A DNA stretch of 64,000 nt, from NCBI RefSeq assembly GCF_965641715.1, contig NZ_OZ282454.1; one strand, 5' to 3'. Both the position numbers and the translations under genes were made by a program. Below the pieces are notes generated by a model. It was given only the letters and a program-made list of their open reading frames with translations, made no database searches and was not told the origin of the DNA. Every line of letters starts with the position of its first letter. The first letter of the stretch is position 1. Source of the stretch: Escherichia coli. GTDB lineage: Bacteria > Pseudomonadota > Gammaproteobacteria > Enterobacterales > Enterobacteriaceae. Shown here one piece after another: positions 17,290-35,200 of this stretch.

Positions 17290-17640
17290 GAGATTACCTT
17301 TTTTGAACATAAAATAAAGTTAATTTCGAAACACTAAAATTCATAATGCAAACAGGGACGCACCGCTAGCAGCGCCCCTAGCGGTATCCTATAAAAAAAC
17401 ACACCGCGCCGCTAGCAGCACCCCTAATATAAAATAATGTTTTTTATAAAAATAGTCAGTCCCCCCCCTACAAAGCGGTGTCGGCGCGTTGTTGTAGCCG
17501 CGCCGACACCGCTTTTTTAAATATCATAAAGAGAGTAAGAGAAACTAATTTTTCATAACTCTCTATTTATAAAGAAAAATCAGCAAAAACTTGTTTTTGC
17601 GTGGGGTGTGGTGCTTTTGGTGGTGAGAACCACCAACTAG
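17290..17640 (+). promoter_or_regulatory. oriT: oriT region with F-type nic motif; inferred nic between 17609 and 17610
   Basis: TTTGCGTGGGGTGT/GGTGCTTTTGGTGGTGAGAACCACC at 17597-17635; GCTAGCAGC-containing direct repeats and a long inverted repeat (17479-17516) upstream; lies between traM and geneX. Confidence 0.8.
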
Positions 17641-17700: not shown

Positions 17701-18210
17701 ATGAAAAAGTGGATGTTAGCAATCTGCCTGATGTTTATAAATGGAATCTGCGAAGCCGCCGATTGCTTTGATCTTGCAGGTCTGGATTACAAAATAGACC
17801 CGGATTTACTGAGAGCGATATCATGGAAAGAATCCCGTTACCGGGTTAATGCCATTGGTATTAATCCGGTAACGGGATATGGCAGCGGACTGATGCAGGT
17901 AGACTCCCAGCATTTTAACGAACTGGCCCGCTACGGAATTAAGCCAGAACATCTGACAACAGATCCCTGCATGAACATTTATACCGGTGCCTATTATCTG
18001 GCAATAGCATTTAAAAAATGGGGCGTATCCTGGGAAGCCGTTGGTGCATACAATGCCGGATTCAAAAAGAGTGAACGCCAGAACCGGAGGCGTCTTGCTT
18101 ATGCATCAGACGTTTACCGGATTTATACCGGGATAAAGAGCAGTAAAGGCATCCGGGTTCCGACCACGAAGAAATCACTCCCCCAAATTAACAGTGTGCA
18201 GAACAATTAA
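17701..18210 (+). CDS. lytic transglycosylase GeneX/Orf169 (P19 family)
   Basis: 169 aa with signal peptide and SLT-like motifs (ISWKESRY...GLMQV...AYNAG); first gene beyond oriT. Confidence 0.88.
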
Positions 18211-18468
18211 TATTGTATACATTGTCAAATACCGGTTATGCCGCGACAGCGGCATGGAAGGCCACACACAAAAATATCATATGAGTGATAATGCTGACTG
18301 GCCGAAGCCCCGCAAAGCGGGAACCCATCTTATATATATCCGGTAACTACGCAGCCTCCTGCCAGACCATTTTTCGCGGGCACAATATTTACAGACTACC
18401 GAAAAGCCAGTTGATGAAATTGAGGTATATCAGACGACACAGCAATGCCGCAGGATGATAATATAAGT

Positions 18469-18492: not shown

Positions 18493-18665
18493 CTTTACTT
18501 ATATTATCATGACTTCCACTCCCTGAACTGTTCGGCAATCATCCATAATGCTTTGTTGATTCGGATATCACCGTCAATGCCTGTAATTGCTCTTGTTCTG
18601 GTATTTTTACCGGAGGCACTTCGCCCCGATAATCCACCTTTTATCATATTCTCCTGAACCCGCTG

Positions 18666-19328
18666 CTAGGTTGTCCAGAGATCGTTCTGTTTATCCTCCC
18701 AACGGCGGGGAGTAATTATTTGTTCAGGCGTCACTGGCGTTTTATTTTCATCTTCATACCTGACCATCAATGCAGCTCTGCCAAATAAATATTGTTCGTC
18801 ACTGTTAAGATGTATCCCTTTCATTGTCTCCATATTTTCAGTGACTTTATCAAAGACACCGGGCACTTCATACGCTCCCTCAATAACCTGCCCGACAATA
18901 TCACCTTTATGTGGAACGCGGATTTCGCCAAAATTATTCCCGCACACCAGGCCATTTGTGTAGACAAAACGAAAAATTCCTGGGATCATCTGATAACTGG
19001 ATGAACCATCATGTGAATTAAGCAGGGTAATTTCAGGAACTTCTTTCCCGTTAATATGCCCTTCCCTGCGAAGACGTAACATATGTTTACTGTATTCGCG
19101 GCGTCCCAAATCACGAACCCGACTCTGACAGGCAAAGAACGGCTGGAAACCTTCATCACGTAACTTATTGATGATATTGATGGTTGGGATATATGTATAA
19201 CGCTCACTCCGGGATTCATGTTTATCACCAGAAAAAACAGATGGAACAAACTGCATTAATTCGTCATCCGTTAACGGGCGCTCACGGCGAATAGAATTAT
19301 ATCGACCAAAACGGGAAGCTAATCGCAT
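18666..19328 (-). CDS. hypothetical leading-region protein (possibly DUF932-like)
   Basis: 220 aa ORF; family assignment from memory only. Confidence 0.55.
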   Translation of the reverse strand: MRLASRFGRYNSIRRERPLTDDELMQFVPSVFSGDKHESRSERYTYIPTINIINKLRDEGFQPFFACQSRVRDLGRREYSKHMLRLRREGHINGKEVPEITLLNSHDGSSSYQMIPGIFRFVYTNGLVCGNNFGEIRVPHKGDIVGQVIEGAYEVPGVFDKVTENMETMKGIHLNSDEQYLFGRAALMVRYEDENKTPVTPEQIITPRRWEDKQNDLWTT

Positions 19329-19438
19329 AACAGTAACTCCTTTATGAAGGCATAAAATTAATAAAAATTTTTTCGCTTAATATCATCCCCCCTCGGTTAT
19401 CGTTAACAAAAAGACAACAATTCCGAGGGGAAGGACCA

Positions 19439-19735
19439 TCAAATCAGGTCAGTTCGGGACTGACCAACCTGCCGAGTGAAAAGCAGTAACAGCGCGATCA
19501 ACTCATCAGCGTTTTTTCTGACAAGAGGAGTATGATTCTCCAGGCTATCCAGTAAGTCATGCAGCTCATTATTGACCTGGTGGAGCACCTTAAAGAGTGC
19601 ACCAGAATCCCGGCAGCTCTGATATGCAAGGTTTGCCTGAACTGCACGATTCTGCATAATCCCGATTTGTGCGATTGCGTCTTTCTGCTGATCGCCTGTT
19701 GGCTGATAAGTGGTGTTAAAAGAAAATGCGCTCAT
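19439..19735 (-). CDS. hypothetical leading-region protein
   Basis: 98 aa ORF immediately downstream (in transcription sense) of repeat copy A. Confidence 0.45.
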   Translation of the reverse strand: MSAFSFNTTYQPTGDQQKDAIAQIGIMQNRAVQANLAYQSCRDSGALFKVLHQVNNELHDLLDSLENHTPLVRKNADELIALLLLFTRQVGQSRTDLI

Positions 19736-19749
19736 AATTCCTCCTGTAT

Positions 19750-20100
19750 CTGATGTTTTCAGCCCCCATCATCTGTTGAGTTTCGGGACCCGCCGCAACG
19801 ACGAAGAGCGCGTGCGCGAAACGGCGTTGCCCCTTACATCCCGGCGGCTTTTTGCCGGGATGCAAGGAGCGCAGGCCACGGCGCGACAGAGGCGGCGCGA
19901 CCGGAACGGTCGCTGCAAGCCCGGGGTTTTCACGCATCGGACCGTAGCGACAGCCCGAAACCGCGCCAGCGGGTTCGGCGGAGACTGGCAGGTGCGCCAG
20001 CAGCTGCCTGTCGGAGTCGGGCCTGACGACCGGATGCCGCCAGGCAGCCGGGAGCCGAAGGTGCGCCCGGCAGACAGGACAACACTGCTGTAGTCAGAAT
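19750..20100. repeat. Frpo/ssi-like leading-region repeat, copy A (shorter; lacks the 5' block)
   Basis: about 330 bp near-identical to 25431-25770 and similar to 28750-28890. Confidence 0.7.
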
Positions 20101-20351
20101 CAGAGCAGGAAGAAAAAGAGAATAATCACGGGAAAGGTAATGTCATTTCTGACAACTGACCATAAACAGAGAAGGCGGGGGAAAAGAACGGGCGCCGCAG
20201 GCGCACGTTCATCCCCTTTCCCGAAGGGAAAGCGCCTTCCAGGCAGTCTGGTTGTTCATGCCCGTACAATGCCAGCAAGGAGAAAGGGGCCACCGGCGAA
20301 CCAGCAGCCCCTTTATAAAGGCGCTTCAGTGCAGTCAGACCAGCATCAGCC

Positions 20352-20378
20352 CTGAAAAGGCGGGCCTGCGCCCGCCTC
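20352..20378 (-). terminator. rho-independent terminator of hok mRNA
   Basis: minus strand GGAGGCGGGCGCAGGCCCGCC then TTTTCAGGG, just 3' of hok stop. Confidence 0.5.
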
Positions 20379-20385
20379 CAGGTTG

Positions 20386-20547
20386 CTACTTACCGCCGGA
20401 TTCGTAAGCCATGCTTGCCGTAACCTCCCTGTATCCGTCCTTCAGCCGTATTTCGCACAGACGATTCCGGGTCAGGAGTGTGAATATCAACAACGTGCAG
20501 CACACGATTAATACGCACCAGATAAGGGCGTTTCCCGGTAGTTTCAT
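20386..20547 (-). CDS. hok: Hok/Gef family toxin (FlmA/Hok-like)
   Basis: hand translation [53 protein letters not shown] (53 aa); not in supplied ORF track (under 60 aa). Confidence 0.85.
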
Positions 20548-20605
20548 GGTTTACTCCTCCTTGCAATTTGCACGGTAAGAGGCCATACTGACGTGGACTA
20601 GACAT
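20390..20605 (-). CDS. mok: Mok-like overlapping reading frame
   Basis: 71 aa ORF overlapping hok in a different frame, as in hok/mok/sok loci. Confidence 0.55.
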
Positions 20606-21064
20606 GCAAAGGCCTCGTGGGTTAATGAAAATTAACTACGGGGCTTTTGTCCTTCTGCCACACGACAGGATAACAAACCACCTTCACGTCATGAGGCAGA
20701 AAGCCTCAAGCGCCGGGCACATCATAGCCCATATACCTGCACGCTGACCACATTCACTTTCCCTGAAAATAATCCGGTCGTTCAGCCAGTTCACGGGCAA
20801 TCAGTTCATCCGCAAACAGTGGTGCATGCCTGTTGATACGTTTCTCCAGATTCCGCCGTCGTACCACAGCCTTACGTTCTTCGCTCCAGCGGCGCACCTA
20901 GCGGTCAGAAATAAAATCCAGACAGACCGCATACCCTGCACCGGCAACCCAGCGTGACATAACGGATGCCGGTGCAGGCTGCCCCGCCTCCACCACTTCT
21001 GAAACCAGTTCATGCTCGCCAGGACAGGGAGAAGGCAGTTTCCAGCGCAATGAGTAACGCCACT

Positions 21065-21784
21065 TCACGCCGCCTCCCGGAGTTTGTTCGGCACCATCCA
21101 CCGCTCCATCTCACGGACAGCGTGACCGGCCTCTCTTGCTGCAAGACTGGCTTCCGCAATAACCTGCCAGAACGGCATATTCTGCCACTGCCAGCGTTCC
21201 ATTCCGGACAGTGACGGAAAACGCTCGCCCCACTGCCAGAACAGGGTTTCCAGGTCATGCTCTGCCACCCGGTCACTCCAGCGTGCATGCCAGCTTCCGA
21301 CTGTTTCCGGCGAATGGAATGCCAGTTCGATTTCAGCCTGAGCGACCAGCGCCTGGTACGCACGGGCTTTCTGCTCTGCCTCCCGTGCCTGCTGGCGGCT
21401 GTACTTCTGCATGACCAGCGCGGATTTATGGCGACTTCGCTCCCTGACACGAAACCGCACCGACGGAAACACCCCCTCTGCTGCATCACCGGGAAGGGGA
21501 AGGAGGCAGACCTCGCCCTGTGTTTCAATCAGCACATCGATGGCATACAGCCACTGAAGACGGTTGCCGTGCAGTTCTTCTGCGGTCAGGGACGGCATGA
21601 AAAATCGCAGGTCAGACAGCGATATCCTGCGGCTTCCGTTCAGACAGCGGAAAAACGCCCCCGCATACGGATATTCCGCCAGCGTGTTACCCTGATGGCG
21701 GCGTTTTTCTGTCTCCGCCACCGCCCGCCATGCGGCCTGTTGCTCTGTGCTGAGGGGAACCAGTGCCTGTGAACGTGCGCTCAT
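21065..21784 (-). CDS. psiA: PsiA plasmid SOS-inhibition protein A
   Basis: 239 aa, same length as F PsiA; directly downstream of psiB. Confidence 0.9.
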
Positions 21785-22218
21785 ACCTGACCTCCTTCCG
21801 CCATCAGGATATGGATGATGTCGTTAACGCTGTACCCCTGCGTATCCAGTGACGCCGCCAGTGCCAGTGAATGGCTGACTGCTTCCGGTGCAAACCGCCG
21901 CTGCACCTGAACCACCGCAAACGGCTCACCACCGGCATTCACCAGAACCAGCACCCAGACCAGAGAGACATTTCCCGGTGAACATAACGCCAGGTGAAAA
22001 CGTTCGTGGACAGGCGTGAAACGGACCTGGACGGGGAAAAAGCCGCCAAACTCGCTGCCGTACTCGCCGTTCAGCGTCCAATTGTCCGGCGCATCCAGCT
22101 CCCGCATCACGGCGTGTGTCAGCTCACGACGTTCACCACTTCCGGCAGCCCGGATATCCTCATATTCCTGTGCGCTCATGGTCTGTAATACATCCAAGGT
22201 CAGTTCAGTTTTCATCAC
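21781..22218 (-). CDS. psiB: PsiB plasmid SOS-inhibition protein B
   Basis: 145 aa; recalled PsiB sequence ([47 protein letters not shown]...). Confidence 0.92.
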
Positions 22219-22269
22219 GGTATCTCCCTTGCTGCCGCCCCGTCTCCGGCGGGGCGGTGTGGTTGTTCA

Positions 22270-24228
22270 TCAGGCGGCATCAGCCAGGTTATCGGCGCGT
22301 TCAGTGGCATCCGTCTGTGGACGTGGTGAACCCATCCAGCCAGGCACCCAGCGGTTGTCTTTCATGTGGAACTCTGCATGTTCAGCGGCATCGCCTTTCT
22401 TCATCTTCTCCGCGTCCTGTGCGGCACCGGACAGTCCGGCATCATTCAGGGCTGCGATAATCTGCGGCTTTTTCAGGTGTCCGAAGAAGTTTGCTTTCGT
22501 CGGCTGCCACCAGTCGCGCATGTGAAAGCCGATAGCGGTTTCCAGCGAGTCAAGCGGACTGCGTGACGTGTGACCATACTCACGGGTCTGAACACCGTGG
22601 ATGCTGCATGCGGTGCAGAAACTGAGCAGGGATAACAGCACCTCCTGACTGAGTGACAGGAACGTCGTCATGTTCCGTGCCCCCCCCTCCGGCAGCAGGG
22701 CAGCAAGACGGGCTTTTTCTGCCATCATCGCCATGAATGCGGCACCTTCCTTCCCCGATGGCGCATCGCTGGTCAGCGAATAATGTTTACATTCCAGGCT
22801 GATTTGTGCTGGTTTACTGTACGCTCCGCTGCCAAACACATTCAGACAGAGCGTCCATGCCAGCAGTGCCAGAGATTTGTCCGGCTGTTGCATCAGCGCC
22901 GCCTGGACTGCCAGCGTGCGCTCTGAAGACATTTTCGTCAGCAGTGGCAGACTGATTTCCTCCACTGACGCTTTCTCCTGCACCTGTTCCGTGCGGTCAG
23001 CGTCGGCAGCCGCGTCATCCTCGCTGCGCAACTGCACACCACGCTGGACACATACGTTGCCATAACGCCAGGACACCACCACACCGCTTCCGGCACGCAT
23101 CTCCGGCGTCCACGCCATGACCTTCGCCATGCAGTCAATCAGCTTCATTTCAGCTTCCAGCAGGTCGGATTCCTCACAGTGGTTTTCCAGCGCGTCGTAA
23201 CGTGCCATCAGTTCGTTCAGGCGTTCTTCTTCCGCCTCGGTCAGCACCGCTTCCGGCTCCGGCAGACAACGGTATGTTCCGGCATCCTCACGGCAGAAAC
23301 CGACAGGCTCCATACGTCCGGCGCACCATTCCCAGCCTTCAGCTTCCCGAAGGTGTTCAGCGACAGCCTGGAGTTTTTCCAGCAGGGCTGCATCGAGCGC
23401 AACACAGTCCACATAGCCACCCTCGTCGTCGCTGAACAAATCGGTGCGCAGTTCGTCTGGCGAGAAGGCATCAGCCCCCACGAAGCGGAATTTACTGTTC
23501 CCCGCCACCGCCACTTCACTTTCGGTCACCAGACGACGAATGGTCTGCACTTCCGGTTTTCCACCCCATCCCGACTGACAGGCAGCTTCAAACACCTGCA
23601 CCTGACGCGCGGTGTCGTTCTCCAGCGCCAGCGCCTGACAGTGCTCTGTGGTGATGCGGTCTTCTGCCAGCGCACCGAGGATGACTGGTGCAAGGTCTGC
23701 CAGTTTCAGCATTCGCTGAACGTGGCGGGGTGAATAGCCCAGCAAATCACCGATTTGTGCAGGTGTTTTGCCTTCCTGCGCCATTGCGCGGAATCCGGCA
23801 ATCTGTTCGGCAGGGTGCATATCCCGACGCTGACCGTTCTCGGTCAGCGATGCAGCCGTCGCCAGTTCCTGCGGGATAACCTTCACGCGGACAGGCCAGT
23901 CCGCCGGAATGATTCCACGCTCTGCCAGCATATTGAGTGCTGCCAGTCTGCGACCACCTGCGGCGACACCGTGGCGGTCACCTGGCAGGGCATGCACGAC
24001 CAGATTCTGCAGCAGGCCGACGCCTTTAATGGACTCCGCCAGTTCGCTGACTGACTCCGCAGAATACGGCACCGTGCGCACATTCAGTGGTGATTTAATC
24101 AGTGAGGCCAGCGGCACGCTCACTTCCGCCGTCTGCGCCAGCAGGGCTGACAGGGCAGTCTCCTGCTCTTTTGACGGTTTACGGCTGGATTTACGCTCCG
24201 TTTTTGTCTTAGACTCTGTAACTGACAT
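22270..24228 (-). CDS. ParB/Srx-like nuclease-domain protein (F Orf652/YubM type)
   Basis: 652 aa; N-terminal ParB-like region; conserved leading-region position upstream of psiB. Confidence 0.85.
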   Translation of the reverse strand: MSVTESKTKTERKSSRKPSKEQETALSALLAQTAEVSVPLASLIKSPLNVRTVPYSAESVSELAESIKGVGLLQNLVVHALPGDRHGVAAGGRRLAALNMLAERGIIPADWPVRVKVIPQELATAASLTENGQRRDMHPAEQIAGFRAMAQEGKTPAQIGDLLGYSPRHVQRMLKLADLAPVILGALAEDRITTEHCQALALENDTARQVQVFEAACQSGWGGKPEVQTIRRLVTESEVAVAGNSKFRFVGADAFSPDELRTDLFSDDEGGYVDCVALDAALLEKLQAVAEHLREAEGWEWCAGRMEPVGFCREDAGTYRCLPEPEAVLTEAEEERLNELMARYDALENHCEESDLLEAEMKLIDCMAKVMAWTPEMRAGSGVVVSWRYGNVCVQRGVQLRSEDDAAADADRTEQVQEKASVEEISLPLLTKMSSERTLAVQAALMQQPDKSLALLAWTLCLNVFGSGAYSKPAQISLECKHYSLTSDAPSGKEGAAFMAMMAEKARLAALLPEGGARNMTTFLSLSQEVLLSLLSFCTACSIHGVQTREYGHTSRSPLDSLETAIGFHMRDWWQPTKANFFGHLKKPQIIAALNDAGLSGAAQDAEKMKKGDAAEHAEFHMKDNRWVPGWMGSPRPQTDATERADNLADAA

Positions 24229-24291
24229 ATATTTCTCCTTTGACCGGGATGGTTGTATGTCTGCCGGACGCGTTCCCGTCCGGCACCTCTC

Positions 24292-24564
<273 letters not shown>

Positions 24565-24582
24565 TTATCACAGTCAGCCCGA

Positions 24583-25116
24583 TCAGAACGGGATGTCGTC
24601 ATCGAAGTTATATTCGGGTTCAGACGGCGGCTGAGGCTCCGGCTGCGCGGCCTTACGTCCACGGCCTTTCGTTTTTGCGCCTCCTTTTTTCGTACCGGCC
24701 TCCGCCTGTGGTTCCGGCTGAGACTGACCGCTGAACTGTTGCCCCTCTTCCGGCTGAGTCTGAGCACCTGCGGCACGTCCCAGCATCTGCATGGTGCCCG
24801 TGGTCTTAACAAGGATTTCGGTGACGTAACGGGTGATACCGTTATCCTCCCAGCTACGGGTGCGAAGCTGACCTTCGATGTAGACCTGCGCGCCCTTGCG
24901 CAGATATTCACCTGCCACTTCCGCGAGCCTGCCGAACAGCACCACGCGATGCCATTCTGTCTGCTCCCTCATCTCCCCCGTCTGTTTGTCACGCCAGCTT
25001 TCTGACGTGGCCACCTGCAGGTTTGCCACTGCGCCACCGTTGGGGATGTAACGGACTTCCGGATCTTTTCCCAGGCGTCCTACGAGAATGACCTTGTTAA
25101 TTCCACGAACTGCCAT
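24583..25116 (-). CDS. ssb: plasmid single-stranded DNA-binding protein
   Basis: start at [25 protein letters not shown]-fold N-terminus, Gly/Gln-rich linker, acidic tail ending DDDIPF. Confidence 0.93.
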
Positions 25117-25140
25117 GATGTGTCTCCTTCTGTTGATGTT

Positions 25141-25770
25141 TTCAGCCCCCATCATCTGTTGAGTTTCGGGAGCCGCGGTTTTGACGTTTTGCGGGGACCT
25201 GCCTTTTGTTCCCTCCGGTATTCACCATCACCTGTTTGAGAACCTTCGCCGCAAGGGGCATCACTGCCACGGCCGGAAACGACTGTCCGGGGGCAGACCG
25301 CAAAAGTTTTTGCCGGCTTTTGGGCAAAAACTTTTGTGGGATGTGCATTTCACCCCTGGACTGACGGAGACGGTTGTGGCTGTCTTTGCCCCCGGCGACA
25401 GGGGTTCAAACAGGTGCAGGGCACCGGACACAACAACGGGCAGGCACCCGCCGCAACGACGTGAAGCGCGGTTTGCGAAACGGCGTTGCCCTCACATCCC
25501 GGCGGCCTTTTGCCGGGATGCCAGGAGCGCAGGCCACGGCGCGACAGAGGCGGCGCGACCGGAACTGTCGCTGCAAGCCCGGGGTTTTCACGCATCGGAC
25601 CGTAGCGACAGCCCGAAACCGCGCCAGCGGGTTCGGCGGAGACTGGCAGGTGCGCCAGCAGCTGCCTGTCGGAGTCGGGCCTGACGACCGGATGCCGCCA
25701 GGCAGCCGGGAGCCGAAGGTGCGCCCGGCATACAGGACAACACTGCTGTAGTCAGAATCAGAGCAGCAGG
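25141..25770. repeat. Frpo/ssi-like leading-region repeat, copy B (full length, about 630 bp)
   Basis: GC-rich, hairpin-rich; directly upstream of ssb in transcription sense. Confidence 0.7.
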
Positions 25771-25972
25771 AAAAAGAAGAACAGTAGCAGTAGCAGGAAC
25801 AACAACATCAGTAACAGACAAATGACAGGCATGAAGAAACAGAAGCCCCCATCAGAACGTCCGCGTAATGAAAGGGGCGGTGCGTCAGCGCGCCCCCTTT
25901 CAGCGCCACCGGCGCGCGGTCTTTTCCCGGCGCGGGCAGACGGGCATTTATCCTCCCGCCTGCCCTGTGTCA

Positions 25973-26536
25973 TCAGGCACGCAAACGAATAATCATCGTC
26001 GGAACACGGGTATAAGCAAACGTCCCGCGCGGCAGCTCCTCGCGGATGTCAGAAAACGGTAACAGCTTCTCCTGCTGGCGTGGCCCGTTCAGACAGACGG
26101 CGACCAGCACGCCACCCGGACGCAACAGGGAAAAGGCCCGCAGGATATGCCGGATATCCTGCCCGTGACTGAACGGCGGATTCATGATAATCCGGCTGTA
26201 ATACTGCGCTGGCTGCCAGTCCATGAAGTCATCACACTGCACCCTGACACCGTTAAAATTTTCCCGCAGATACCGGACCAGCCCGCTGTTAATCTCCACC
26301 GCATCACACATGGCCCCCGGCGCGATATCCCGAATCGCCCGCAGTATGGCTCCGGTGCCGGCAGAGGGCTCCAGAATGTGATCATGGTTGCTGATCTCCG
26401 CCAGCGTCACCAAGCGATCACAGACCGGGGCAGGTGTCACAAAGAGCTGAGATTCAGCCCGGATTTCAGCAACCGGTGCAGCGTTATCCAGCCCTGCGCG
26501 CATCAGCCTGATACGTTCTTTTAACTGACTGTGCAT
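25973..26536 (-). CDS. SAM-dependent N6-adenine DNA methyltransferase (small orphan MTase)
   Basis: 187 aa; motif I-like EPSAGTGA and motif IV NPPF. Confidence 0.75.
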   Translation of the reverse strand: MHSQLKERIRLMRAGLDNAAPVAEIRAESQLFVTPAPVCDRLVTLAEISNHDHILEPSAGTGAILRAIRDIAPGAMCDAVEINSGLVRYLRENFNGVRVQCDDFMDWQPAQYYSRIIMNPPFSHGQDIRHILRAFSLLRPGGVLVAVCLNGPRQQEKLLPFSDIREELPRGTFAYTRVPTMIIRLRA

Positions 26537-26583
26537 GTCATTATCTCCGTTATCCCCCGGGGATTTTCCCCGGGGGATAAGTC

Positions 26584-27945
26584 TTATTTCTGCGGGATTT
26601 CCGTGATTTTCATGTCGGTGATATACACATTCACCAGACGGAAATTGTTGTCCATTGTGCGGCGGTAACGATATGCTCCGTGCTCTTCTGTCTCTGCCAC
26701 ACTGCGCACGGCCTTACAGTCCCGGGGCAGGGCGGCCCACTCTGCCTTTGTCATTTCCCGGAAGCCTTCCCCCGGATAGTTGACTACAGGCGGACGCTTC
26801 GCGGCCTGTCTGGCGACAACGGCCTCTTCTGCCGATGGCGCTTTGTAGTCCGTGATGCGATCAGGCGTCACTTTCATCGTGCCACTGTACCCGAGGAAAC
26901 TGTAATTCGGCGTTGTGACTGAACTCACCGCCCCGTTGCTTTTGTTCACGCGGATGATGGTCAGCCACTCGCCCCGGCTGCAAACCTGCCCGCCCGGCTC
27001 AAAATCTTGTGTCCGGGTAACCACGCCGCCGCTTTCGTCCAGCATGGCACGCTCATAGATCAAGCGGTTCTGATAGTGGTTAACCCAGCGTTGCTGACGC
27101 TGAATCTGCCGTTCATGGCAGCGGATCGCAATTTCGCGGGCCTGCTCCGTGGTGATAATGTCATCATCCAGGGCCGACCATAACGATCGACTCCCTTCAT
27201 ACTGGCTTTTTTCTGCCGGGCGCGGATACCTGTCCAGCGGGAAACAGGCACTGATTCGGTCATAACTGCTGATAAGTTTTGCCATATTCAGATCCAGCGA
27301 TTCAGCCCGCCACATCGTCAGATATTTCTGCGACTGTGCGATGGTCTTTTCAGCCTTGCGCAAATCAGCCTCGATTTTTTTGATACGACGCCAGCGAACG
27401 TCCGGACGTTCTTTATACTTCGCGAGAAGCAGTGCCGACCGCGCCCGCGCCTCCCAGTATTCCGCACGTTCAAAGAGCATCACGGCACGTTTCATACCAT
27501 TTTCAATACGCTGCGCATCACGACGGGCGCGGCGTTCGCTGTGATGTCCCACAAGGATCGGCTGACCGGGCGGGATCATCGCGGCCAGTCTTTCCACTTC
27601 ATCAAGTGCCTGTGCGGATTCACTGGCCCGCTTTCCGCTGTATCCGGTAAACCGCTCCGCCCGTGCTTCCTGACGTTCAGCGAGCGTACTGTCTTCATCC
27701 TCAATCTCTCCGGCAAGTGAGAGGAGCACGTCTTCCCGGCCCGGTGTCCAGGCAGGAGCCACAAACAGCGCCTGTTTGGGTGCCCAGCGGAAACCGGCAT
27801 CATGGACTTTTTTATACGTCTCCGGGTCAAGACGTGACGCGGCATACAGGCGCAGTTTGTTGTCATCCGGTGAGTAGGTCGCGCGGTACATCTGCACAGG
27901 GCTGGCGGCTTCCGGGGCGGTCATGGTGATTGCTGCTAATGTCAT
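26584..27945 (-). CDS. hypothetical leading-region protein (possibly DUF3560-like)
   Basis: 453 aa ORF; family from memory only. Confidence 0.6.
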   Translation of the reverse strand: MTLAAITMTAPEAASPVQMYRATYSPDDNKLRLYAASRLDPETYKKVHDAGFRWAPKQALFVAPAWTPGREDVLLSLAGEIEDEDSTLAERQEARAERFTGYSGKRASESAQALDEVERLAAMIPPGQPILVGHHSERRARRDAQRIENGMKRAVMLFERAEYWEARARSALLLAKYKERPDVRWRRIKKIEADLRKAEKTIAQSQKYLTMWRAESLDLNMAKLISSYDRISACFPLDRYPRPAEKSQYEGSRSLWSALDDDIITTEQAREIAIRCHERQIQRQQRWVNHYQNRLIYERAMLDESGGVVTRTQDFEPGGQVCSRGEWLTIIRVNKSNGAVSSVTTPNYSFLGYSGTMKVTPDRITDYKAPSAEEAVVARQAAKRPPVVNYPGEGFREMTKAEWAALPRDCKAVRSVAETEEHGAYRYRRTMDNNFRLVNVYITDMKITEIPQK

Positions 27946-27996
27946 AAAATGTTCTCCTTCCGTCTGTTGCCGCCCCTCGCGGGGCGGCTCACCTCA

Positions 27997-28227
27997 TCAG
28001 TTAAAAGCGCGTTTCAGTTCGAGTGTGCGGAGCACCTGCCCGAAAGCCGTGTTTTTCATGGCGGGGATGTGTACACCACGCCCCCGGTGAAAACTCCGGG
28101 CTATGTGTCGCCCGAAGGCTTTCAGCACGGGGGCAATTTCCGGCGCGGGGATGTCTTCGCGTCTGAAACGGGGATGACGGCGGGGCTTTACAGCCGCTGC
28201 GGAAGGTGAAACAATACTTAAAGTCAT
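27997..28227 (-). CDS. hypothetical small protein
   Basis: 76 aa basic ORF first downstream of repeat copy C. Confidence 0.4.
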   Translation of the reverse strand: MTLSIVSPSAAAVKPRRHPRFRREDIPAPEIAPVLKAFGRHIARSFHRGRGVHIPAMKNTAFGQVLRTLELKRAFN

Positions 28228-28454
28228 AATTTAGCCTCTTATGACGGTTGAATGGAGCCGCAAAAACTGTTCGTGCAGTCTCTGCGGCGTGGATTAAGCA
28301 GGTCCCTGACCTGCTTTTTTCATATCTGCATCTGACGTTCTCCGGTGTTTTCCTCCTTCTGTTCCTGCGTTTTCATTACCTGCCAGCCGGATGACTGGCA
28401 GAATACATAAATGCGTATTGCCGGAGCCTGAAATAAATCCTGATTTTTAAAGAA

Positions 28455-28895
28455 CATCACCCGTTGAGTTTCGGGAGCCGCGGTTTTGACGTTTCGCGGG
28501 AACCTGCTGCTGTATTCCCTGTGGTATGAACTTCACCCGTTTGAGAACCTTCGCCGCAAGGGGCATCACTGCCACGGCCTGACGCACCTGTCCGGGGCAG
28601 AACGCAAAATTTTTTACCGGGTTCTGGGTAAAAAATTTTGTGGGCTGTTCATTTACCCTGGACAGTCAGTGCGACAGGTTGTGGCTATATGAGCCCCCGG
28701 CGACAGGGACTCATACGGGTGTGTGGCACCCGGCAGGCAATGAGCAGGGACCCGCTGCAACGACGGAGAGCGCGTGCGCGAAACGGCGTTGCCCCTTACA
28801 TCCCGGCGGCCTTTTGCCGGGATGCCAGGAGCGCAGGCCACGGTGCGACAGAGGCGGCGCGACCGTTCCGGTCGCTGCAAGCCGGGGGTTTTCGC
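28455..28895. repeat. Frpo/ssi-like leading-region repeat, copy C
   Basis: shares 5' block (GTTGAGTTTCGGGAGCCGCGGTTTTGACG...) and 3' block with copy B. Confidence 0.7.
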
Positions 28896-28931
28896 GCGGG
28901 CTGACAGGCGGCCTCCACCGCCTACCCTGTA

Positions 28932-29123
28932 TCACCTGTGTCTGCTGCCCTGAAGGATGTACTGACCACCGAGGAAAACAGCCTGCTGATTCGCTACAAA
29001 ATCGCAGATTTCATCAACAATCTGCGCGGTGGTGAGCGGTTTCTGTCCCATTTCACGACGCCGCGCATTAATCACGGCCCTGTAATTACGCAGAATTTCG
29101 CGGGTTTCCGTGCTGATATTCAT
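28932..29123 (-). CDS. hypothetical small protein
   Basis: 63 aa ORF abutting the next gene. Confidence 0.35.
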   Translation of the reverse strand: MNISTETREILRNYRAVINARRREMGQKPLTTAQIVDEICDFVANQQAVFLGGQYILQGSRHR

Positions 29124-29542
29124 TACCCGTTCTCCCCGTCCAGCGCCTGACGCATCACCCGCATAATCTCACGTTCTTCCCTGACAAATGCGTCACCGTC
29201 GCCCCCGTTCTCGCACCCGACAGCATGGAGGCGATAAATTTCACTACCAGCCATCACCATCACTTTTTCCAGCAGCACCGCAGGGACTGTTACAAGACGG
29301 TTTACGCGCTTTTCCTCCATCAGTTCATTGACAATATCGGAAACAACTCTGTCACATGCGCCATATACAAAAGCATCGTCCAGCCGCTGCATGACGGTTT
29401 CCAGCTCATCGTCTGACAGGTTCCAGTCCTGAGCCATATGGCGTACATCCCCACGGGTCAGCACTACGGCAAAAACGCATTCACTGTCCGGCACGTCTGT
29501 ATCCAGTACATCGCGGATAATTTCTTTAACAGTACAGTACAT
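29123..29542 (-). CDS. hypothetical protein, paralog of 32231-32698 (possibly DUF1380-like)
   Basis: 139 aa; shares motif NRLVTVPAxLL and acidic character with ORF 32231-32698. Confidence 0.55.
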   Translation of the reverse strand: MYCTVKEIIRDVLDTDVPDSECVFAVVLTRGDVRHMAQDWNLSDDELETVMQRLDDAFVYGACDRVVSDIVNELMEEKRVNRLVTVPAVLLEKVMVMAGSEIYRLHAVGCENGGDGDAFVREEREIMRVMRQALDGENG

Positions 29543-29588
29543 GTTCTCGTCTCCTTTACAGGGGCGGCATTGCCGCCCCGTCCGTTAA

Positions 29589-30014
29589 TCAGTCCAGTGC
29601 CGCATAAATCGCGTTACATTCGGGGTGAAATTCGATGTGGCTCCACAACTGCGCATCACGCATCCTGTACAGGTGTGCCAGCCCTGCGTTACCGCTGTCG
29701 TGGTACAGCCACAACTGGCGGTTAATCACAAGAGACATCAGAATGATGCCTGCGGCATCGGCACTGACCGTGCGGTCAAACCAGTTTTCACCGTTAACCA
29801 GATGAAAACGGTCGCCATCCGGCATCATGTAGCCGCCACCGTCCGGCAGGCGGATGAAATGCCAGAAGCCTCCCTGATATTCCGGCATCATTTTTTTCGC
29901 CAGCGCATACACTGATGCCTCGGCATACAGAAAATCGTTGCCAAACAGGTAAGGCAGAAAAGACAGACGGTCGATTTCTTCAACGTTCAGGGTGACAGAT
30001 TTTGCATACTGCAT
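29589..30014 (-). CDS. klcA: KlcA/ArdB-family anti-restriction protein
   Basis: about 141 aa from MQYAKS; recalled KlcA pattern DRLSFLP...FG...EASVYA...GGFWHF..LPDGGGYM.PD...VNGN...SADAAGI...AIYAALD. Confidence 0.78.
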   Translation of the reverse strand: MQYAKSVTLNVEEIDRLSFLPYLFGNDFLYAEASVYALAKKMMPEYQGGFWHFIRLPDGGGYMMPDGDRFHLVNGENWFDRTVSADAAGIILMSLVINRQLWLYHDSGNAGLAHLYRMRDAQLWSHIEFHPECNAIYAALD

Positions 30015-30120
30015 GGGATTTCCTCCGTTGTTCACATATTCCGCGACATCGGGCGGTGCCGGCGGCGACTTCCTTTGTGCTCTGTCCGGGGACCGGCAGG
30101 AAAAAGGCGGGGATTCTCCC

Positions 30121-31459
30121 CATAAGCGCTAACTTAAGGGTTGAACCATCTGAAGAATGCGACGCCTCGGTGCCTCGTTAAGACGATGCCTCGCGTTCTT
30201 CAATTGCGTTTTGTAGGCTGTCAGGGATACTGTCCCACGAATGGCCACCTGTAAGCTCCAGATGACCATTTTTGTTATTCTCCACAACGAGTTAGTTCTT
30301 CTTTTCGGATCCGGCACTTCTGGGGGGGAAATCCAGCGATGGCTGGATTATGTCGTCAATTAAAAATGCGGCGAGTAGATTAGCAAATATCCACGCTTTC
30401 GCGAGTTCAGGTTCCTTTGCACGCAAAGCATCCAGGTGCAGCAAACTTTTGAGCCGCTTAAAAGCCAGTTCAATTTGCCATCGCAGACGGTAACAATCAG
30501 CCACTTGCTCTGCTGAATATTCATCTTCCGGTAATGATGTTAGCAATAGCACATGGCCCGCTGCTTCCAGCGTTTCCGCCTGAACTACTCGTCCTTTTCG
30601 ACGATTCTCGCTGAGCAGTCGGGTTTTACTGATTAATGCTTTTTCGGGAGGAAGTGATACGGCAATGAGACGTGCCGGAAAGGGAGCTCCGGCTTTTTTA
30701 TTACCTGAATTGCCTATCATTACAGTGGTTTCACCGTTCTTACCGCAATCCAGCCCGCGCAGAAAACCCATCATGTCAAAGCGCATTCCTTCTGCAGTTA
30801 ACCAGCGCAATCCTCGCCAGTGAACCCGGACGATATAATCAGCTTCTCCAAAAGCAAGTGAGCGGATACATTCGGGACGCGAACCGAATCCCCGGTCAGC
30901 AATGCGTATCTCGTCTGCCGTTTGCGCAAATCGGTCCAGCCGTTCAGCGTCTCTGCTGTCGGTTAGCTCAAAATCAGTGAACTGACAGGTATGAGGATCA
31001 TATCCCATATGTAGTCGCCATTCAGCGCTGCCGCCCCCGGGCGCACTGATTGCTGTTCCATCGACAAGACGCAATCTCTTTCCGCTTGTACAACCCGTAA
31101 CTGCGGCGCGTACAGCAAGTGTTTGTGCGGCAAGTATGCCAAACCAGTCGGCGGCATTCCGCAGCCGCTTCAGGAGAGCCACGTCAGATAATGTTGCAAC
31201 GTCATGGAGCTGAGCCCATGCAGTGACTTCACGTAATGACATCCCCCCGGGGCCGTAAGCCAGCCCCAGACGTAGCAGAGTTGCAGCATCACGAATTTCG
31301 CGGCGGCGGGTTAGAGCCCCGGCATTACGTGCCGAAGTATCCAGTTCTTCGGGCTTACCAATATGGGCCAGAATTGCTGACCAGTTATCGTGAGAGTAAT
31401 TCATCGGCACGTTAAATCATATCAGGCGTAATACCACAACCCTTAAGTTAGCGCTTATG
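30121..31459 (-). mobile_element. IS186 (IS4 family), complete, with target-site duplication
   Basis: 1339 bp; terminal inverted repeats CATAAGCGCTAACTTAAGGGTTG (30121-30143) and CAACCCTTAAGTTAGCGCTTATG (31437-31459); flanking direct repeat GGATTCTCCC(C). Confidence 0.9.
30292..31410 (-). CDS. IS186 transposase
   Basis: 372 aa ORF matching recalled IS186 transposase (MNYSHDNWSAILAHIGKPEELDTSARNAGALTRRREIRDAATLLRLGLAYGPGGMSLREV...). Confidence 0.92.
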   Translation of the reverse strand: MPMNYSHDNWSAILAHIGKPEELDTSARNAGALTRRREIRDAATLLRLGLAYGPGGMSLREVTAWAQLHDVATLSDVALLKRLRNAADWFGILAAQTLAVRAAVTGCTSGKRLRLVDGTAISAPGGGSAEWRLHMGYDPHTCQFTDFELTDSRDAERLDRFAQTADEIRIADRGFGSRPECIRSLAFGEADYIVRVHWRGLRWLTAEGMRFDMMGFLRGLDCGKNGETTVMIGNSGNKKAGAPFPARLIAVSLPPEKALISKTRLLSENRRKGRVVQAETLEAAGHVLLLTSLPEDEYSAEQVADCYRLRWQIELAFKRLKSLLHLDALRAKEPELAKAWIFANLLAAFLIDDIIQPSLDFPPRSAGSEKKN

Positions 31460-32900: not shown

Positions 32901-33635
32901 TTACGCAGCCTCCGGCATAAACCAGTCATCATTCGCGGCCCCCTGCTGCATGGGCCGTTGCACGGCGGCAAGGCGTTGCTGCCCGGCACGGTGATACTGC
33001 TCAAGCAGCTCGATACCGATATACCGGCGTCCGGACTGGAGGGCGGCGACGCAGGTTGAGCCGCTGCCTGCAAACGGGTCCAGCACAATTGCGTTCGGGT
33101 GTGTGAAGCTCTCAATCAGCGGTTACAGGCTGGTAACGGGCTTTTCCGTCGGGTGATGGCGATTGCCCGAATATTTCCAGCCCAGCACGTCCGGCGGCGG
33201 GTTTTGTGGCAGACGTGGACGGCCTTTTGCCAGGATGTAGGCGCATTCGTGGCGATAGCCCACATATGCGGCCTTCGATGTGTAGTTTTTGGTGAAGACC
33301 AGGTGACCAACAACGCTGAATCCCGCATTTTTCCAGGCGGCCATAAAGCGATCGGCGCGGTTCCAGCCGTAGAAGCTGACCATCAGCGCATCTTTTTTGA
33401 GTACGCGGAACATTTCATTACAGGCCGGTTGCAGCCATTCATCGGTTTTATCGCCGGCAATGGTACGCCCTGAACGGTCACGGACCCCCACCAGGTAAGG
33501 CGGGTCGGTAAGTATGAGATCAATGGCGTTATCAGGGATACGGGCCATAACATCGATGCAGTTACCGAGGACAAAACGGGACATAACAACTGTATGAACG
33601 CATCCCCGTTTGCAAGGCATCCGTTGTTCTGACAT
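32901..33635 (-). pseudogene. beta-class DNA methyltransferase interrupted by in-frame ochre (TAA) at 33123-33125
   Basis: upstream ORF has DPPY and ...HHPTEKPVTSL; after TAA the same frame continues PLIESFTHPNAIVLDPFAGSGSTCVAALQ (motif I). Confidence 0.75.
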
Positions 33636-33699
33636 CGACGATTAGTTGCAGCTCTGTATCCGGCCTTATTGCAGCCAGAGCTGCGGGCCACTATGAGAT

Positions 33700-35200
33700 T
33701 CGCTGACCTGAGCCTTATTCTCCTTACGGACTTTATATCCCGGCTGTTATTCAGATTTATCAGGTCACGGTCTTACCTGTCGTTGTCATCACTCGGGCCG
33801 CCAGAGCAACCTTTCAGCATTCACCCTTTTGTTAAGAGTTCATTATTTATCGGTATCAGCGATTAATATGGTCTGATACTGACATGGTTCCTGTCATACT
33901 TACGGTCATGGGCAGCTATCGCCCATACTGTTCGTGCCAGCTTGTTTGCCATGGCGACGATAGCCACACTGGCTGGACGACGTTTTTTCAGTTCGGTTAT
34001 CCACGGACCAGGTTCTTTAGTCAGTAATGCTGCCGCCCTTGCGCCATGAATAAACAGGGTTCGCAGATATGTATCACCACGTTTGCTTATCCCCAGCAGG
34101 CGAATTTTCCCTCCTGAGCCAGTCTGTTTGGGCACCAGACCAACATAAGCCGCGAACTCTCGCCCTGATTTAAACGCTGATGCTTCCCCCATGGTGGCCA
34201 CCGCTGCCGTCGCAATAAGTGGCCCAACACCAGGAATATCCAGCAACCGCTTACAGGTCTCATTCTGTTTCGCCACGCTGGCAAGCTGTTTTTCGATGTC
34301 TTCTATCAGGGAGTCCAGCTCATTCAACCGCTTATACTGGTTTTTCAGTACCGTGATGAGATACGGTGGCAGTCTCTCTTTCATTCGTTCCAGTGCTTCA
34401 GGGAACTCCCGCTCCATTGCTGCCCGACCTTTGTGGATGGTTTCACCAAACTCCAGTAACGTCCCGTGTAGGGCGTTAATTTGTGCGATCCGGAACTTCA
34501 CCAGTTGCATGCGGGTACGGTGCAGAACCAGTACCGACTGCTGTTCTTCTGTTTTGACGGCAATTTCTTTACCGGGCTGCTGAACCGCCATCCAGATAGC
34601 CCGGGCATCCATCACGTCGTTCTTGTTTCCCATGACGAATGCCTTAACGAAGCGGGCCTGTAACAAGCGGACGTTATGCCCCAGCTTTGTCAGCTCCCGT
34701 GCCCAGTGCTGAGAGCCTCCACAGGCCTCCATACCAATCAGGCAGGGTTCCCGGTTGCTGAAATATTCAAGAAAATCTCTGCCACGAAGTTGCTTATCCA
34801 CCACTTCACCTGTGTTCTCATCAATGAAGTGAACCTGAATCAGATGTTTTGCGATATCAACGCCAACCGGTGTATATTTCATTTGTGGAGTCTCCAGTCT
34901 GAGGGAACTTTATGCATCCCGTATTGGGCACAATGATGCCGGAAATCTGCGAGGCTCCACACCTCTCTGATTTCCCCCTTTATTCATCACTGTGCTCCGG
35001 ATTTAATGTTGGGGGATGCGTTCATCTCATTCTCCTTCTCTTACAGAAGACACCGGGAGGGCCCCCCTGTGGTGCCCGTTCCCCGCTGCCTGTGGGTTGT
35101 TCACCGCGTCCGGTAACGGGTCAGGCCGACCGTGGAATATCGCAGCCGTCGTCTTTTTGACGGCGAGAATATGCCGTGAAAGCGGCTTGAAGGGCGTTCA
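33700..35200 (-). mobile_element. IS110-family element (boundaries approximate, not determined)
   Basis: transposase gene plus non-coding flanks; this family lacks clear terminal inverted repeats so ends cannot be fixed by eye. Confidence 0.3.
33863..34882 (-). CDS. IS110-family transposase/recombinase
   Basis: 339 aa; MEACGGS...NKND.MDA (DEDD N-terminal) and LLDIPGVGPLIA...GLVPKQ.GSGGK...GISKRGD C-terminal motifs. Confidence 0.85.
   Translation of the reverse strand: MKYTPVGVDIAKHLIQVHFIDENTGEVVDKQLRGRDFLEYFSNREPCLIGMEACGGSQHWARELTKLGHNVRLLQARFVKAFVMGNKNDVMDARAIWMAVQQPGKEIAVKTEEQQSVLVLHRTRMQLVKFRIAQINALHGTLLEFGETIHKGRAAMEREFPEALERMKERLPPYLITVLKNQYKRLNELDSLIEDIEKQLASVAKQNETCKRLLDIPGVGPLIATAAVATMGEASAFKSGREFAAYVGLVPKQTGSGGKIRLLGISKRGDTYLRTLFIHGARAAALLTKEPGPWITELKKRRPASVAIVAMANKLARTVWAIAAHDRKYDRNHVSIRPY

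Follow-up and report, generated by a model that had tools for sequence, protein, structure and literature searches.

Three Frpo units in the leading region of an IncF plasmid: two probable single-strand promoters and a copy without its hairpin

We analysed a 64,000-nt stretch of Escherichia coli DNA (contig NZ_OZ282454.1; hereafter the window), which represents the leading region of an IncF plasmid. The nick-region sequence GTGGGGTGTGGTGCTTT, which we take to be the nic site of F, was found as an exact match on the + strand, and traM, FinP and traJ lie to its left on the − strand. Its location there shows that the + strand is the one transferred, and the three repeat copies described below (A, B and C) enter the recipient in that order. 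All leading genes in the window are on the − strand, and A, B and C have the orientation relative to them that is the rule for class-1 promoters. Each copy lies upstream, in the sense of transcription, of − strand genes, as the first-pass annotation of this DNA had claimed (A of a ygeA-like gene, B of ssb, C of a 76-aa ORF). The database record CP057088 was 99.965% identical to the window (~6 of 17,122 aligned bases differ) and was our source for the gene names of the ssb operon. The window carries an extra IS421 and the two are thus separate records. The DUF932/ygeB homologue beside the ygeA-like gene has a premature stop in the window. The features are as follows.

17601–17617, + strand: oriT nick region GTGGGGTGTGGTGCTTT, exact match, marking + as the transferred strand
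19439–19735, − strand: ygeA-like gene (98 aa), first gene downstream of copy A, with its own AGGAGG ribosome-binding site
19767–20119, + strand: copy A, at the place of F Frpo1, very probably a remnant that has lost its hairpin (from alignment and fold)
19767–19784: 5′ flank and ~8 nt of the stem base of copy A
19785–19788: deletion junction GGGA of copy A
19789–19836: base of the 3′ arm of copy A, ~48 nt
19837–20119: GC-rich flank module of copy A
24583–25116, − strand: plasmid ssb, first gene of the copy B operon (ssb, DUF905, ParB-like, psiB, psiA)
25163–25481, + strand: probable promoter hairpin of copy B, class-1 Frpo, corresponding to F Frpo2, directly upstream of ssb; apex near 25316–25325
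25181–25186 and 25236–25241: −35-like boxes TTGACG and TTGAGA of copy B
25482–25777, + strand: GC-rich flank of copy B, 98% identical to the flank of copy A
27997–28227, − strand: 76-aa ORF, first gene downstream of copy C, followed by DUF3560 and methyltransferase genes
28468–28784, + strand: probable promoter hairpin of copy C, class-1 Frpo, upstream of the 76-aa ORF, DUF3560 and SAM methyltransferase genes
28486–28491 and 28541–28546: −35-like boxes TTGACG and TTGAGA of copy C
28785–28897, + strand: flank of copy C, shortened

The three copies are direct repeats and were recovered no more than ~20 nt from where the annotation had placed them (A 19767–20119, B 25146–25777, C 28455–28897). 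The near-identical blocks that it had noticed were also found: over 289 nt, A and B are 98% identical, and all three copies have a 151-nt block in common (85–93%). As judged from the sequence, this sharing is far beyond chance. Copy A indeed lacks the block at the low-coordinate (‘5′’) side, about 275–290 nt. Copy C is shortened too, on its high-coordinate side, which had gone unmentioned. The full unit consists of an imperfect hairpin of ~320 nt (class-1 Frpo/ssiD) and, on its 3′ side, a GC-rich multi-hairpin flank of ~300 nt.

The ORFs inside the repeats had been regarded as artefacts, and our results agree. A 68-aa ORF in copy B (25142–25348) is named ‘single-stranded DNA-binding protein’ by PGAP; its start codon is not kept in copy C. 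NCBIfam gave no family for this ‘ssb’ ORF, for the + strand ORFs of 125–127 aa in the flank, for the ygeA-like protein or for the 76-aa ORF. Neither the hairpin nor the flank module had an Rfam family at the gathering or the permissive threshold; the sole match, a miRNA-precursor model on hairpin B (E = 0.53), was rejected as chance.

We used the 351-nt ssiD/Frpo of F (Supplementary Table 2 of PMC11541004) as reference. Copy B was 95.1% identical to it over 348 nt (25146–25491) and copy C 78.5% over 340 nt; the copy C hairpin was 88–89% identical to the copies in pRHB24-C09_2. With copy A, ssiD aligned over its last 53 nt only (E = 1e-11). The earlier assignment of the repeats to the Frpo/ssi family is thus upheld for B and C by ssiD homology and a long + strand hairpin, and fails for A. 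The GC-rich block common to all three copies had been taken for the promoter element itself. Since copy A has lost the Frpo hairpin itself, the block is the flank adjoining the hairpin and not the promoter.

Folding of the + strand, which had been proposed as a check, revealed the expected long imperfect hairpin in B and C; in A, only short local hairpins were obtained (z −3.6) and a long stem-loop of ~300 nt was not found. The z-score was −11.0 for the whole of copy B, −8.6 for hairpin B alone and −9.0 for a 461-nt stretch covering the copy C hairpin and flank. In a sliding scan with 300-nt windows, hairpins B and C reached −82 to −92 kcal/mol against a background of −48±12. The + strand folded better as DNA than the − strand (hairpin B, −102 vs −91.2 kcal/mol; hairpin C alone, −94.6 vs −85.9), a difference of 8–11 kcal/mol, with 8–9 G·T pairs vs 1–3. 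Covariation among seven homologues (81 pairs) pointed in the same direction: 93.8% of cells were paired vs 38–46% with slid partners, 22 cells showed double changes vs 1–6, and the score was reached in none of 500 shuffles.

These results bear on the idea that the repeats are pieces of an unrelated mobile element, for example a palindromic MITE-like one. A long inverted repeat present in several copies, with a distal flank bounded by 16–17-nt direct repeats, would fit such an element. However, we found no transposase or terminal-repeat signature; one copy is 95% identical to an experimentally characterised promoter, and the structure shows strand bias and covariation support. In addition, the units have a fixed orientation to the transferred strand and a fixed place before operons in F, ColIb-P9 and thousands of plasmids. 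We consider a mobile-element origin scarcely credible.

A strict scan for sigma-70 promoters (≥9/12 matches, spacer of 16–18 nt) turned up no pair of hexamers on either strand of B or C. A relaxed search yielded two positionally conserved candidates on the 5′ arm; their −35 boxes, TTGACG and TTGAGA, are invariant and their −10 boxes weak. The boxes of hairpins B and C are candidates only, strong at −35 and weak at −10.

The original work on Frpo of F is reportedly that of Masai and Arai in 1997, and ssi1–3 of ColIb-P9 are said to go back to Bates et al. in 1999. Frpo1/ssiD and Frpo2 of F are also called ssp1a and ssp1b. The class-1 promoters of F are located upstream of ygeA/ygeB (Frpo1) and ssb (Frpo2) (Couturier et al. 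2023, PMC9849209). Early leading-gene expression depends on both in vivo, and transcription and priming at Frpo depend on ssDNA (PMC9849209; PMC12672017; PMC7690428). F carries two full units, both with a hairpin, ~5.4 kb apart and with hok/flm between them. The window resembles this arrangement: copy B (~95% identical to ssiD, with a ~320-nt hairpin on the transferred strand) precedes ssb like Frpo2, copy A precedes ygeA like Frpo1, and the two are ~5.7 kb apart with hok/sok between them. It differs from F in three respects. A third unit, C, with cargo (the 76-aa ORF, DUF3560 and a 187-aa SAM methyltransferase) is absent from F at this place; the copy at the Frpo1 position is without a hairpin; and in F the distal part of the GC-rich flank exists as another sequence variant.

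In IncI1 plasmid ColIb-P9, ssi1–3 belong to class 1 (Wen et al. 2025, PMC12672017). As in the window, there are three copies per leading region, each before an early operon; the apex is homologous (78–81% over about 90–115 nt), and the proximal small hairpins of the flank are kept with different stem sequences. The overall identity is far lower, however, and BLAST does not align the basal half of the hairpin. A class-2 promoter (ssp2) lies upstream of antirestriction genes of the ardB/klcA type (PMC12672017; bioRxiv 10.64898/2026.01.09.698686). The window keeps the flanks of ssp2 upstream of its antirestriction gene, but the ssp2 sequence is unrelated to copies A–C and its hairpin itself is deleted in the window.

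PriA-type sites (n′-pas, phiX-type ssi) and Frpo were both isolated as ‘single-strand initiation’ signals on plasmid ssDNA. The two differ in that priming at Frpo is ascribed to RNA polymerase (review PMC7690428), and the earlier reading of the repeats as primosome-assembly elements is not borne out.

The repeats are copies of the well-known Frpo unit and therefore a known kind of element. We regard it as highly probable that B and C are class-1 single-strand promoters and that A is a dead remnant which kept its flank after a slippage-type loss. The basis of this reading is homology, fold, strand bias, covariation, and the deletion junctions with their rarity. Promoter and primer activity is predicted from what has been published for F and ColIb-P9. 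Once oriT is nicked near 17610, the + strand would enter the recipient 5′ to 3′, and copies A, B and C would arrive in that order as single-stranded DNA. Hairpins B and C would then re-create double-stranded boxes of the −35/−10 type, from which the sigma-70 RNA polymerase of the host could read the transferred strand towards lower coordinates before any complementary strand has been made. The genes from ssb to psiA would be expressed from copy B, and the 76-aa ORF, DUF3560 and the methyltransferase from copy C. These transcripts could also prime complementary-strand synthesis, and conversion to double-stranded DNA would turn the promoters off. At the Frpo1 place, a slippage-type deletion of 275 nt between GGGA tetranucleotides at the stem base would have removed the hairpin of copy A.

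Alignment of copy A to an intact relative showed these 275 nt to be missing between two GGGA tetranucleotides. An intact version of 476 nt is present in ~278 plasmids with the same flanks. Both −35-like boxes of the class-1 hairpin are deleted from copy A, and a scan for a sigma-70-like hexamer pair inside it found none. With the hairpin and both boxes gone and the flank alone left, copy A is very probably a remnant and not a single-strand promoter; the ygeA-like gene, as predicted from this alignment, is now without one.

An alternative is that all three copies work as single-strand promoters and that the GC-rich common block is the promoter hairpin. All three do lie upstream of blocks of leading genes in the right orientation. 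Moreover, the flank of copy A reached −84 to −91 kcal/mol per 300 nt in the sliding fold and so passes the published mining threshold of −75 kcal/mol per 300 nt (PMC12672017), and copy A would also be called, through its ssiD match, by BLAST at E ≤ 1e-6 with the published reference sequences. This alternative has against it that the characterised ssiD maps to the module absent from A, that A has neither the conserved boxes nor a hexamer pair and forms short local hairpins only, and that the hairpin is still present in the ~278 relatives whose flanks are the same. We consider it very unlikely. Annotation by homology and annotation by energy threshold would both count copy A as a promoter in spite of its lost hairpin, and published copy-number censuses may therefore include dead remnants.

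It is also conceivable that copy A is no class-1 promoter but that the ygeA-like gene is still expressed early, so that the loss of the hairpin was nearly neutral. Just upstream of the flank of copy A, a sigma-70-like site with 9/12 matches is present on the − strand (20146–20119); together with the good fold of the flank, this site means that the gene could be expressed otherwise. Expression might come from this site once the DNA is double-stranded, or transcripts started at copy B might run on through ssb, psiB, psiA and hok. In the stretch from hok to copy A, we found no convincing intrinsic terminator, only weak 5-bp stems in a number near chance expectation, and the copy A junction persists in plasmids from several sources. 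On the other hand, deletion of Frpo1 in F abolished early production of YgeA-sfGFP and lowered the frequency of transconjugants from ~92% to 25% (PMC9849209), and the premature stop in the adjacent DUF932/ygeB homologue suggests decay of the module rather than a kept function. A nearly neutral loss thus appears unlikely, and we prefer the reading of copy A as a dead remnant.

Three deletions were found in this lineage, each between direct repeats (4 nt in copy A, 9 nt at the class-2 promoter, 16–17 nt in copy C). Flanks of the class-2 promoter are present at 29977–30121 upstream of the antirestriction gene; the hairpin (~289–298 nt, with boxes TTGCAT...TAAGAT) is gone, with the junction at 30053–30061. 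From the flank of copy C, ~314 nt of the distal part are deleted between the repeats CC[A/G]GGGGTTTTC[A/G]CGC (junction 28881–28897). We infer that these deletions arose by replication slippage. Deletions of ~300 nt at GC-rich hairpins and repeats, which are hard to sequence, could instead be assembly artefacts, the real plasmid having three intact units. The class-2 and copy C junctions occur, besides the window, in only two database records, both from one farm-surveillance project. Several independent submissions, however, contain the copy A junction, and the same Frpo junction occurs at the ssb copy in NZ_CP010123. In addition, the window is separate from CP057088, the junctions lie at short direct repeats as slippage predicts, and they are new sequences that a graph assembler would not be expected to invent. 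We consider an artefact highly improbable.

With a known unit that has its hairpin in two copies only and a remnant as the third, there is little unusual in the finding. Its sole mildly new point is the natural loss of hairpins, and nothing new on mechanism emerges. Frpo-type promoters time the first plasmid genes in a new host (SSB, SOS inhibitors, anti-restriction and methylase functions), and this timing affects how well resistance plasmids establish. In this pig-associated IncF lineage, two different single-strand promoter hairpins were lost by short-repeat deletions. Such plasmids are natural material on the question of whether plasmids outside the laboratory can do without Frpo1 and ssp2.

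The + strand of the copy B flank folded at −82.7 kcal/mol (z −5.5) vs −69.2 (z −2.7) for the − strand. MAFFT misaligned the ColIb-P9 and Salmonella flanks, and we therefore judged conservation of the flank hairpins by inspecting the sequences themselves rather than by counting pairs. In F-like, insect-metagenome, ColIb-P9 and Salmonella homologues, the small hairpins recur at the same places although their stems differ in sequence. A scan of the flank for terminators gave no consistent terminator. A protein-coding flank was rejected; the F copies differ from those of the window by several indels whose lengths are not divisible by three, and there was no family match. The flank may be a separate functional ssDNA element, as suggested by its presence in all three copies, its conservation with compensating changes from IncF to IncI1 and Salmonella, and the better fold of the + strand. 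Single-strand promoter hairpins, in turn, may be natural deletion hot spots, as suggested by the loss of Frpo1, the class-2 hairpin and part of a flank in one lineage, each between short direct repeats. These two proposals, taken jointly, are tentative and rather doubtful. If hairpins are such hot spots, plasmids of this kind would be natural knock-outs for the contribution of each promoter in the wild. The flank could, for example, protect the promoter hairpin against transcription reading through or against the oncoming complementary-strand replisome, which would resemble the roadblock recently described for ssp2.

A repeat search of 18500-30500 returned a 289-nt pair with 98% identity (19831-20119 and 25489-25777), a 151-nt block present three times at 85-93% (starting at 19785, 25443 and 28747) and blocks in copies B and C only (25150-25430 and 28455-28735). 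Given its length, this identity is not due to chance. Alignment of the copies defined a complete unit of ~630 nt consisting of two modules; the low-coordinate module is missing from copy A, and the high-coordinate end of copy C is truncated. The search and the alignment thus bore out the three repeat copies of the first-pass annotation, and also its remark that copy A lacks the 5' block. The main features are:

17601-17617, + strand: exact match to the F-type nick sequence GTGGGGTGTGGTGCTTT
18507-19328, - strand: DUF932 (ygeB-type) gene
19767-20119: copy A
25146-25777: copy B
28455-28897: copy C
30122-31458: IS421 (IS4-family), 12-bp target duplication, absent from the near-identical CP057088
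30292-31410, - strand: IS421 transposase, 372 aa

From left to right, the - strand carries traM, the oriT region, DUF932, ygeA-like, copy A, hok/sok, psiA, psiB, ParB-like, DUF905, ssb, copy B, methyltransferase, DUF3560, a 76-aa ORF, copy C, a 63-aa ORF, DUF1380 and the antirestriction gene. The SLT gene in the oriT region is on the + strand. We take the nick sequence to be the nic site. Since it lies on the + strand, this strand is the one transferred and also serves all leading genes as template, and the copies enter the recipient in the order A, B, C. A 91.6% match to ssiE, the other single-strand initiation sequence of F, was found near oriT, between the SLT and DUF932 genes (18205-18393). 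E. coli plasmid pRHB38-C15_2 (CP057088; IncFIA/FIB, MOBF, MPF_F) matches the region with 99.965-100% identity, and thousands of IncF plasmids do so at 90-95%. About 6 substitutions in 17 kb and the IS421 insertion separate the window from CP057088, making it an independent record of the same lineage.

We compared the window by BLAST with five reference Frpo/ssi sequences (Supplementary Table 2 of Samuel et al. 2024, PMC11541004). F ssiD (Frpo, D90178) matched copy B (25146-25491) with 95.1% identity over 348 nt and copy C (28466-28798) with 78.5% over 340 nt, whereas only its last 53 nt aligned with copy A (19785-19836). The ColIb-P9 references matched the apex regions of B and C. These positions show that the low-coordinate module, which is a long hairpin, is the characterised promoter; the GC-rich sequence common to all three copies is the flank 3' of it. 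The F plasmid has two full units, both with the hairpin. These correspond to Frpo1, which precedes ygeA/ygeB, and Frpo2, which precedes ssb; the two are "about 5 kb apart" and separated by flm/hok (PMC9849209). The positions of copies A and B are exactly those of Frpo1 and Frpo2. The close relative pRHB24-C09_2 has three full units, indicating that three copies are the normal state for this plasmid group.

Folded as single-stranded DNA, hairpin B (25161-25492) reached -102 kcal/mol (z -8.6), with z -11.0 for the whole of copy B and -9.0 for copy C. In a 300-nt sliding scan modelled on Wen et al. 2025, hairpins B and C gave -82 to -92 kcal/mol against a background of -48±12. The + strand of the hairpin was 8-11 kcal/mol more stable than its complement and contained 8-9 G.T pairs versus 1-3; the regional background was slightly biased to the - strand. 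This + strand bias of the predicted folds is what marks a structure under selection on the transferred strand. An alignment of seven homologues (copies B and C of the window, Frpo1 and Frpo2 of F, one Serratia and two insect-metagenome sequences) gave a consensus fold of 81 pairs, nine of which showed compensatory double changes. Paired cells amounted to 93.8%, compared with 38-46% for slid partners, and double-change cells to 22 versus 1-6; none of 500 shuffles reached the observed covariation score.

Neither B nor C had a sigma-70 hexamer pair in a strict scan. In a relaxed search of the transferred strand, only two candidate promoters were positionally conserved among the seven homologues, both on the 5' arm: TTGACG with a 17-19 nt spacer and a T-rich hexamer, and TTGAGA with a 17-18 nt spacer and CATCAC or TAAACC. 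Their -35 boxes were invariant and their -10 boxes weak. The predicted promoter function of B and C is accordingly assigned by homology to the characterised element and not by box detection. Both belong to the class-1 Frpo/ssi family and are unremarkable within it; members of the family have been annotated in thousands of plasmids (13,089 copies in 6,006 elements; in 74% of PsiB plasmids). The first-pass assignment to Frpo/ssi therefore holds for B and C, with their ssiD homology and long imperfect hairpin, and fails for A, which lacks the defining structural features. Its term primosome assembly is inappropriate because priming at Frpo is carried out by RNA polymerase (PMC7690428). A known system was correctly recognised, with one copy mis-assigned; only the naturally occurring losses of the hairpin and the conservation of the flank are modestly new.

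The ORFs predicted inside the repeats had been considered artefacts, and we agree. The PGAP 68-aa 'single-stranded DNA-binding protein' (25142-25348, - strand) falls within the 5' arm of hairpin B. NCBIfam yielded no family for it, not even SSB, and the corresponding frame of copy C lacks a start codon. This ORF is probably an artefact with a wrong name that has been copied across many records. Downstream of hairpin C, Rfam AS-pc01 (antisense RNA to pHK01_035) matched at 28222-28319 (+ strand; 107 bits, E = 5.5e-19), accompanied by a strong + strand terminator (28296-28316). Because it lies between hairpin C and the first gene after it, this RNA is antisense to the copy-C operon leader.

Copy A is a remnant left by a deletion, and it should not be annotated as a promoter. 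Alignment with NZ_CP010123, a cattle IncF plasmid, revealed a clean 275-nt loss between GAGTTTC[GGGA]GCCGCGG... and ...GGGCA[GGGA]CCCGCC, with the 4-nt direct repeats GGGA at the stem base. The loss removed both -35 candidates; the remainder folds into local hairpins only, and a sigma-70 scan found no hexamer pair in it. A 201-nt probe over the junction was contiguous in five plasmid records (CP057088, CP055625, NZ_CP080228, NZ_OQ420466 and CP122749), of pig origin wherever a source was stated; ~278 other records with the same flanks had a 476-nt version instead. In NZ_CP010123 the ygeA-proximal Frpo copy is intact, while the ssb-proximal one (1501-1570 of locus 70175-73244) shows exactly this hairpin-less junction, GAGTTTC|GGGACCCGCC; its flanks differ, as does its distal flank variant. 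Loss of the hairpin thus recurs or spreads between copies by conversion. Nevertheless, the GC-rich flank alone gave -84 to -91 kcal/mol per 300 nt (at 19750-19825 and 25375-25475), beyond the -75 kcal/mol threshold for homology-independent mining of single-strand promoters (PMC12672017), and the terminal ssiD match to copy A has E = 1e-11. By either of the usual annotation routes, copy A would therefore be counted as a promoter despite its missing hairpin.

Downstream of copy A, the DUF932 gene has a single premature stop (220-aa ORF vs 273 aa); it is intact in relatives including pP136-5, which has the same deletion. Just upstream of the copy A flank, a sigma-70-like ATGACA-16-TATTCT (9/12; 20146-20119, - strand) is a possible conventional promoter candidate towards the ygeA-like gene, and F Frpo1 has a similar sequence at this position.

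Over 9.1 kb of colinear genes, large differences from pRHB24-C09_2 were concentrated in structured non-coding elements. The class-2 (ssp2-type) hairpin, present at the antirestriction (ArdB/KlcA-like) gene in F and in some 3,200 further plasmid records, is absent upstream of this gene in the window (29977-30121). The loss comprises ~289-298 nt between direct repeats GCGGTGCCG and GCGGAGCCG (junction 30053-30061); of the 4,632 plasmid records matching a 71-nt junction probe, 2 contained it without interruption. The copy C flank is truncated: ~314 nt have been deleted between direct repeats of 16-17 nt, CC[A/G]GGGGTTTTC[A/G]CGC (28881-28897); among the matches listed, this junction was contiguous only in CP055625 and CP057088, the same two records that carry the class-2 junction. 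In a recent preprint, complementary-strand synthesis is reported to stall where the ssp2 stem ends. We infer from this that the deletions may have arisen by slippage during such stalling at a hairpin. The IS421 insertion site is occupied in 77 complete E. coli genomes, where the class-2 hairpin is retained. A further ~1.45-kb insertion relative to pRHB24-C09_2 (33586-35031) has a counterpart in CP057088 annotated as IS110-family transposase.

The copy B flank alone (25493-25780) folded at -82.7 kcal/mol on the + strand (z -5.5) and -69.2 on the - strand (z -2.7). Its proximal small hairpins keep their positions between homologues with different stem sequences: CATCCCGG/CCGGGATG (F-like), CGCCCCGG/CCGGGGTG (insect), CACACC/GGTGTG (ColIb-P9) and ATGCCGGC/GCCGGCAT (Salmonella). 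The flank had no Rfam match, supported ORF or consistent terminator; a protective or insulating role on single-stranded DNA is possible. The small flank hairpin GCGACCG-GAA-CGGTCGC of copy A (19897-19913) has a stem mismatch in copy B (CGG to CTG; 25555-25571) and the loop TTC in copy C (28853-28869), as in some other plasmids. This GAA/TTC inversion has the appearance of a flipped hairpin or a template switch.
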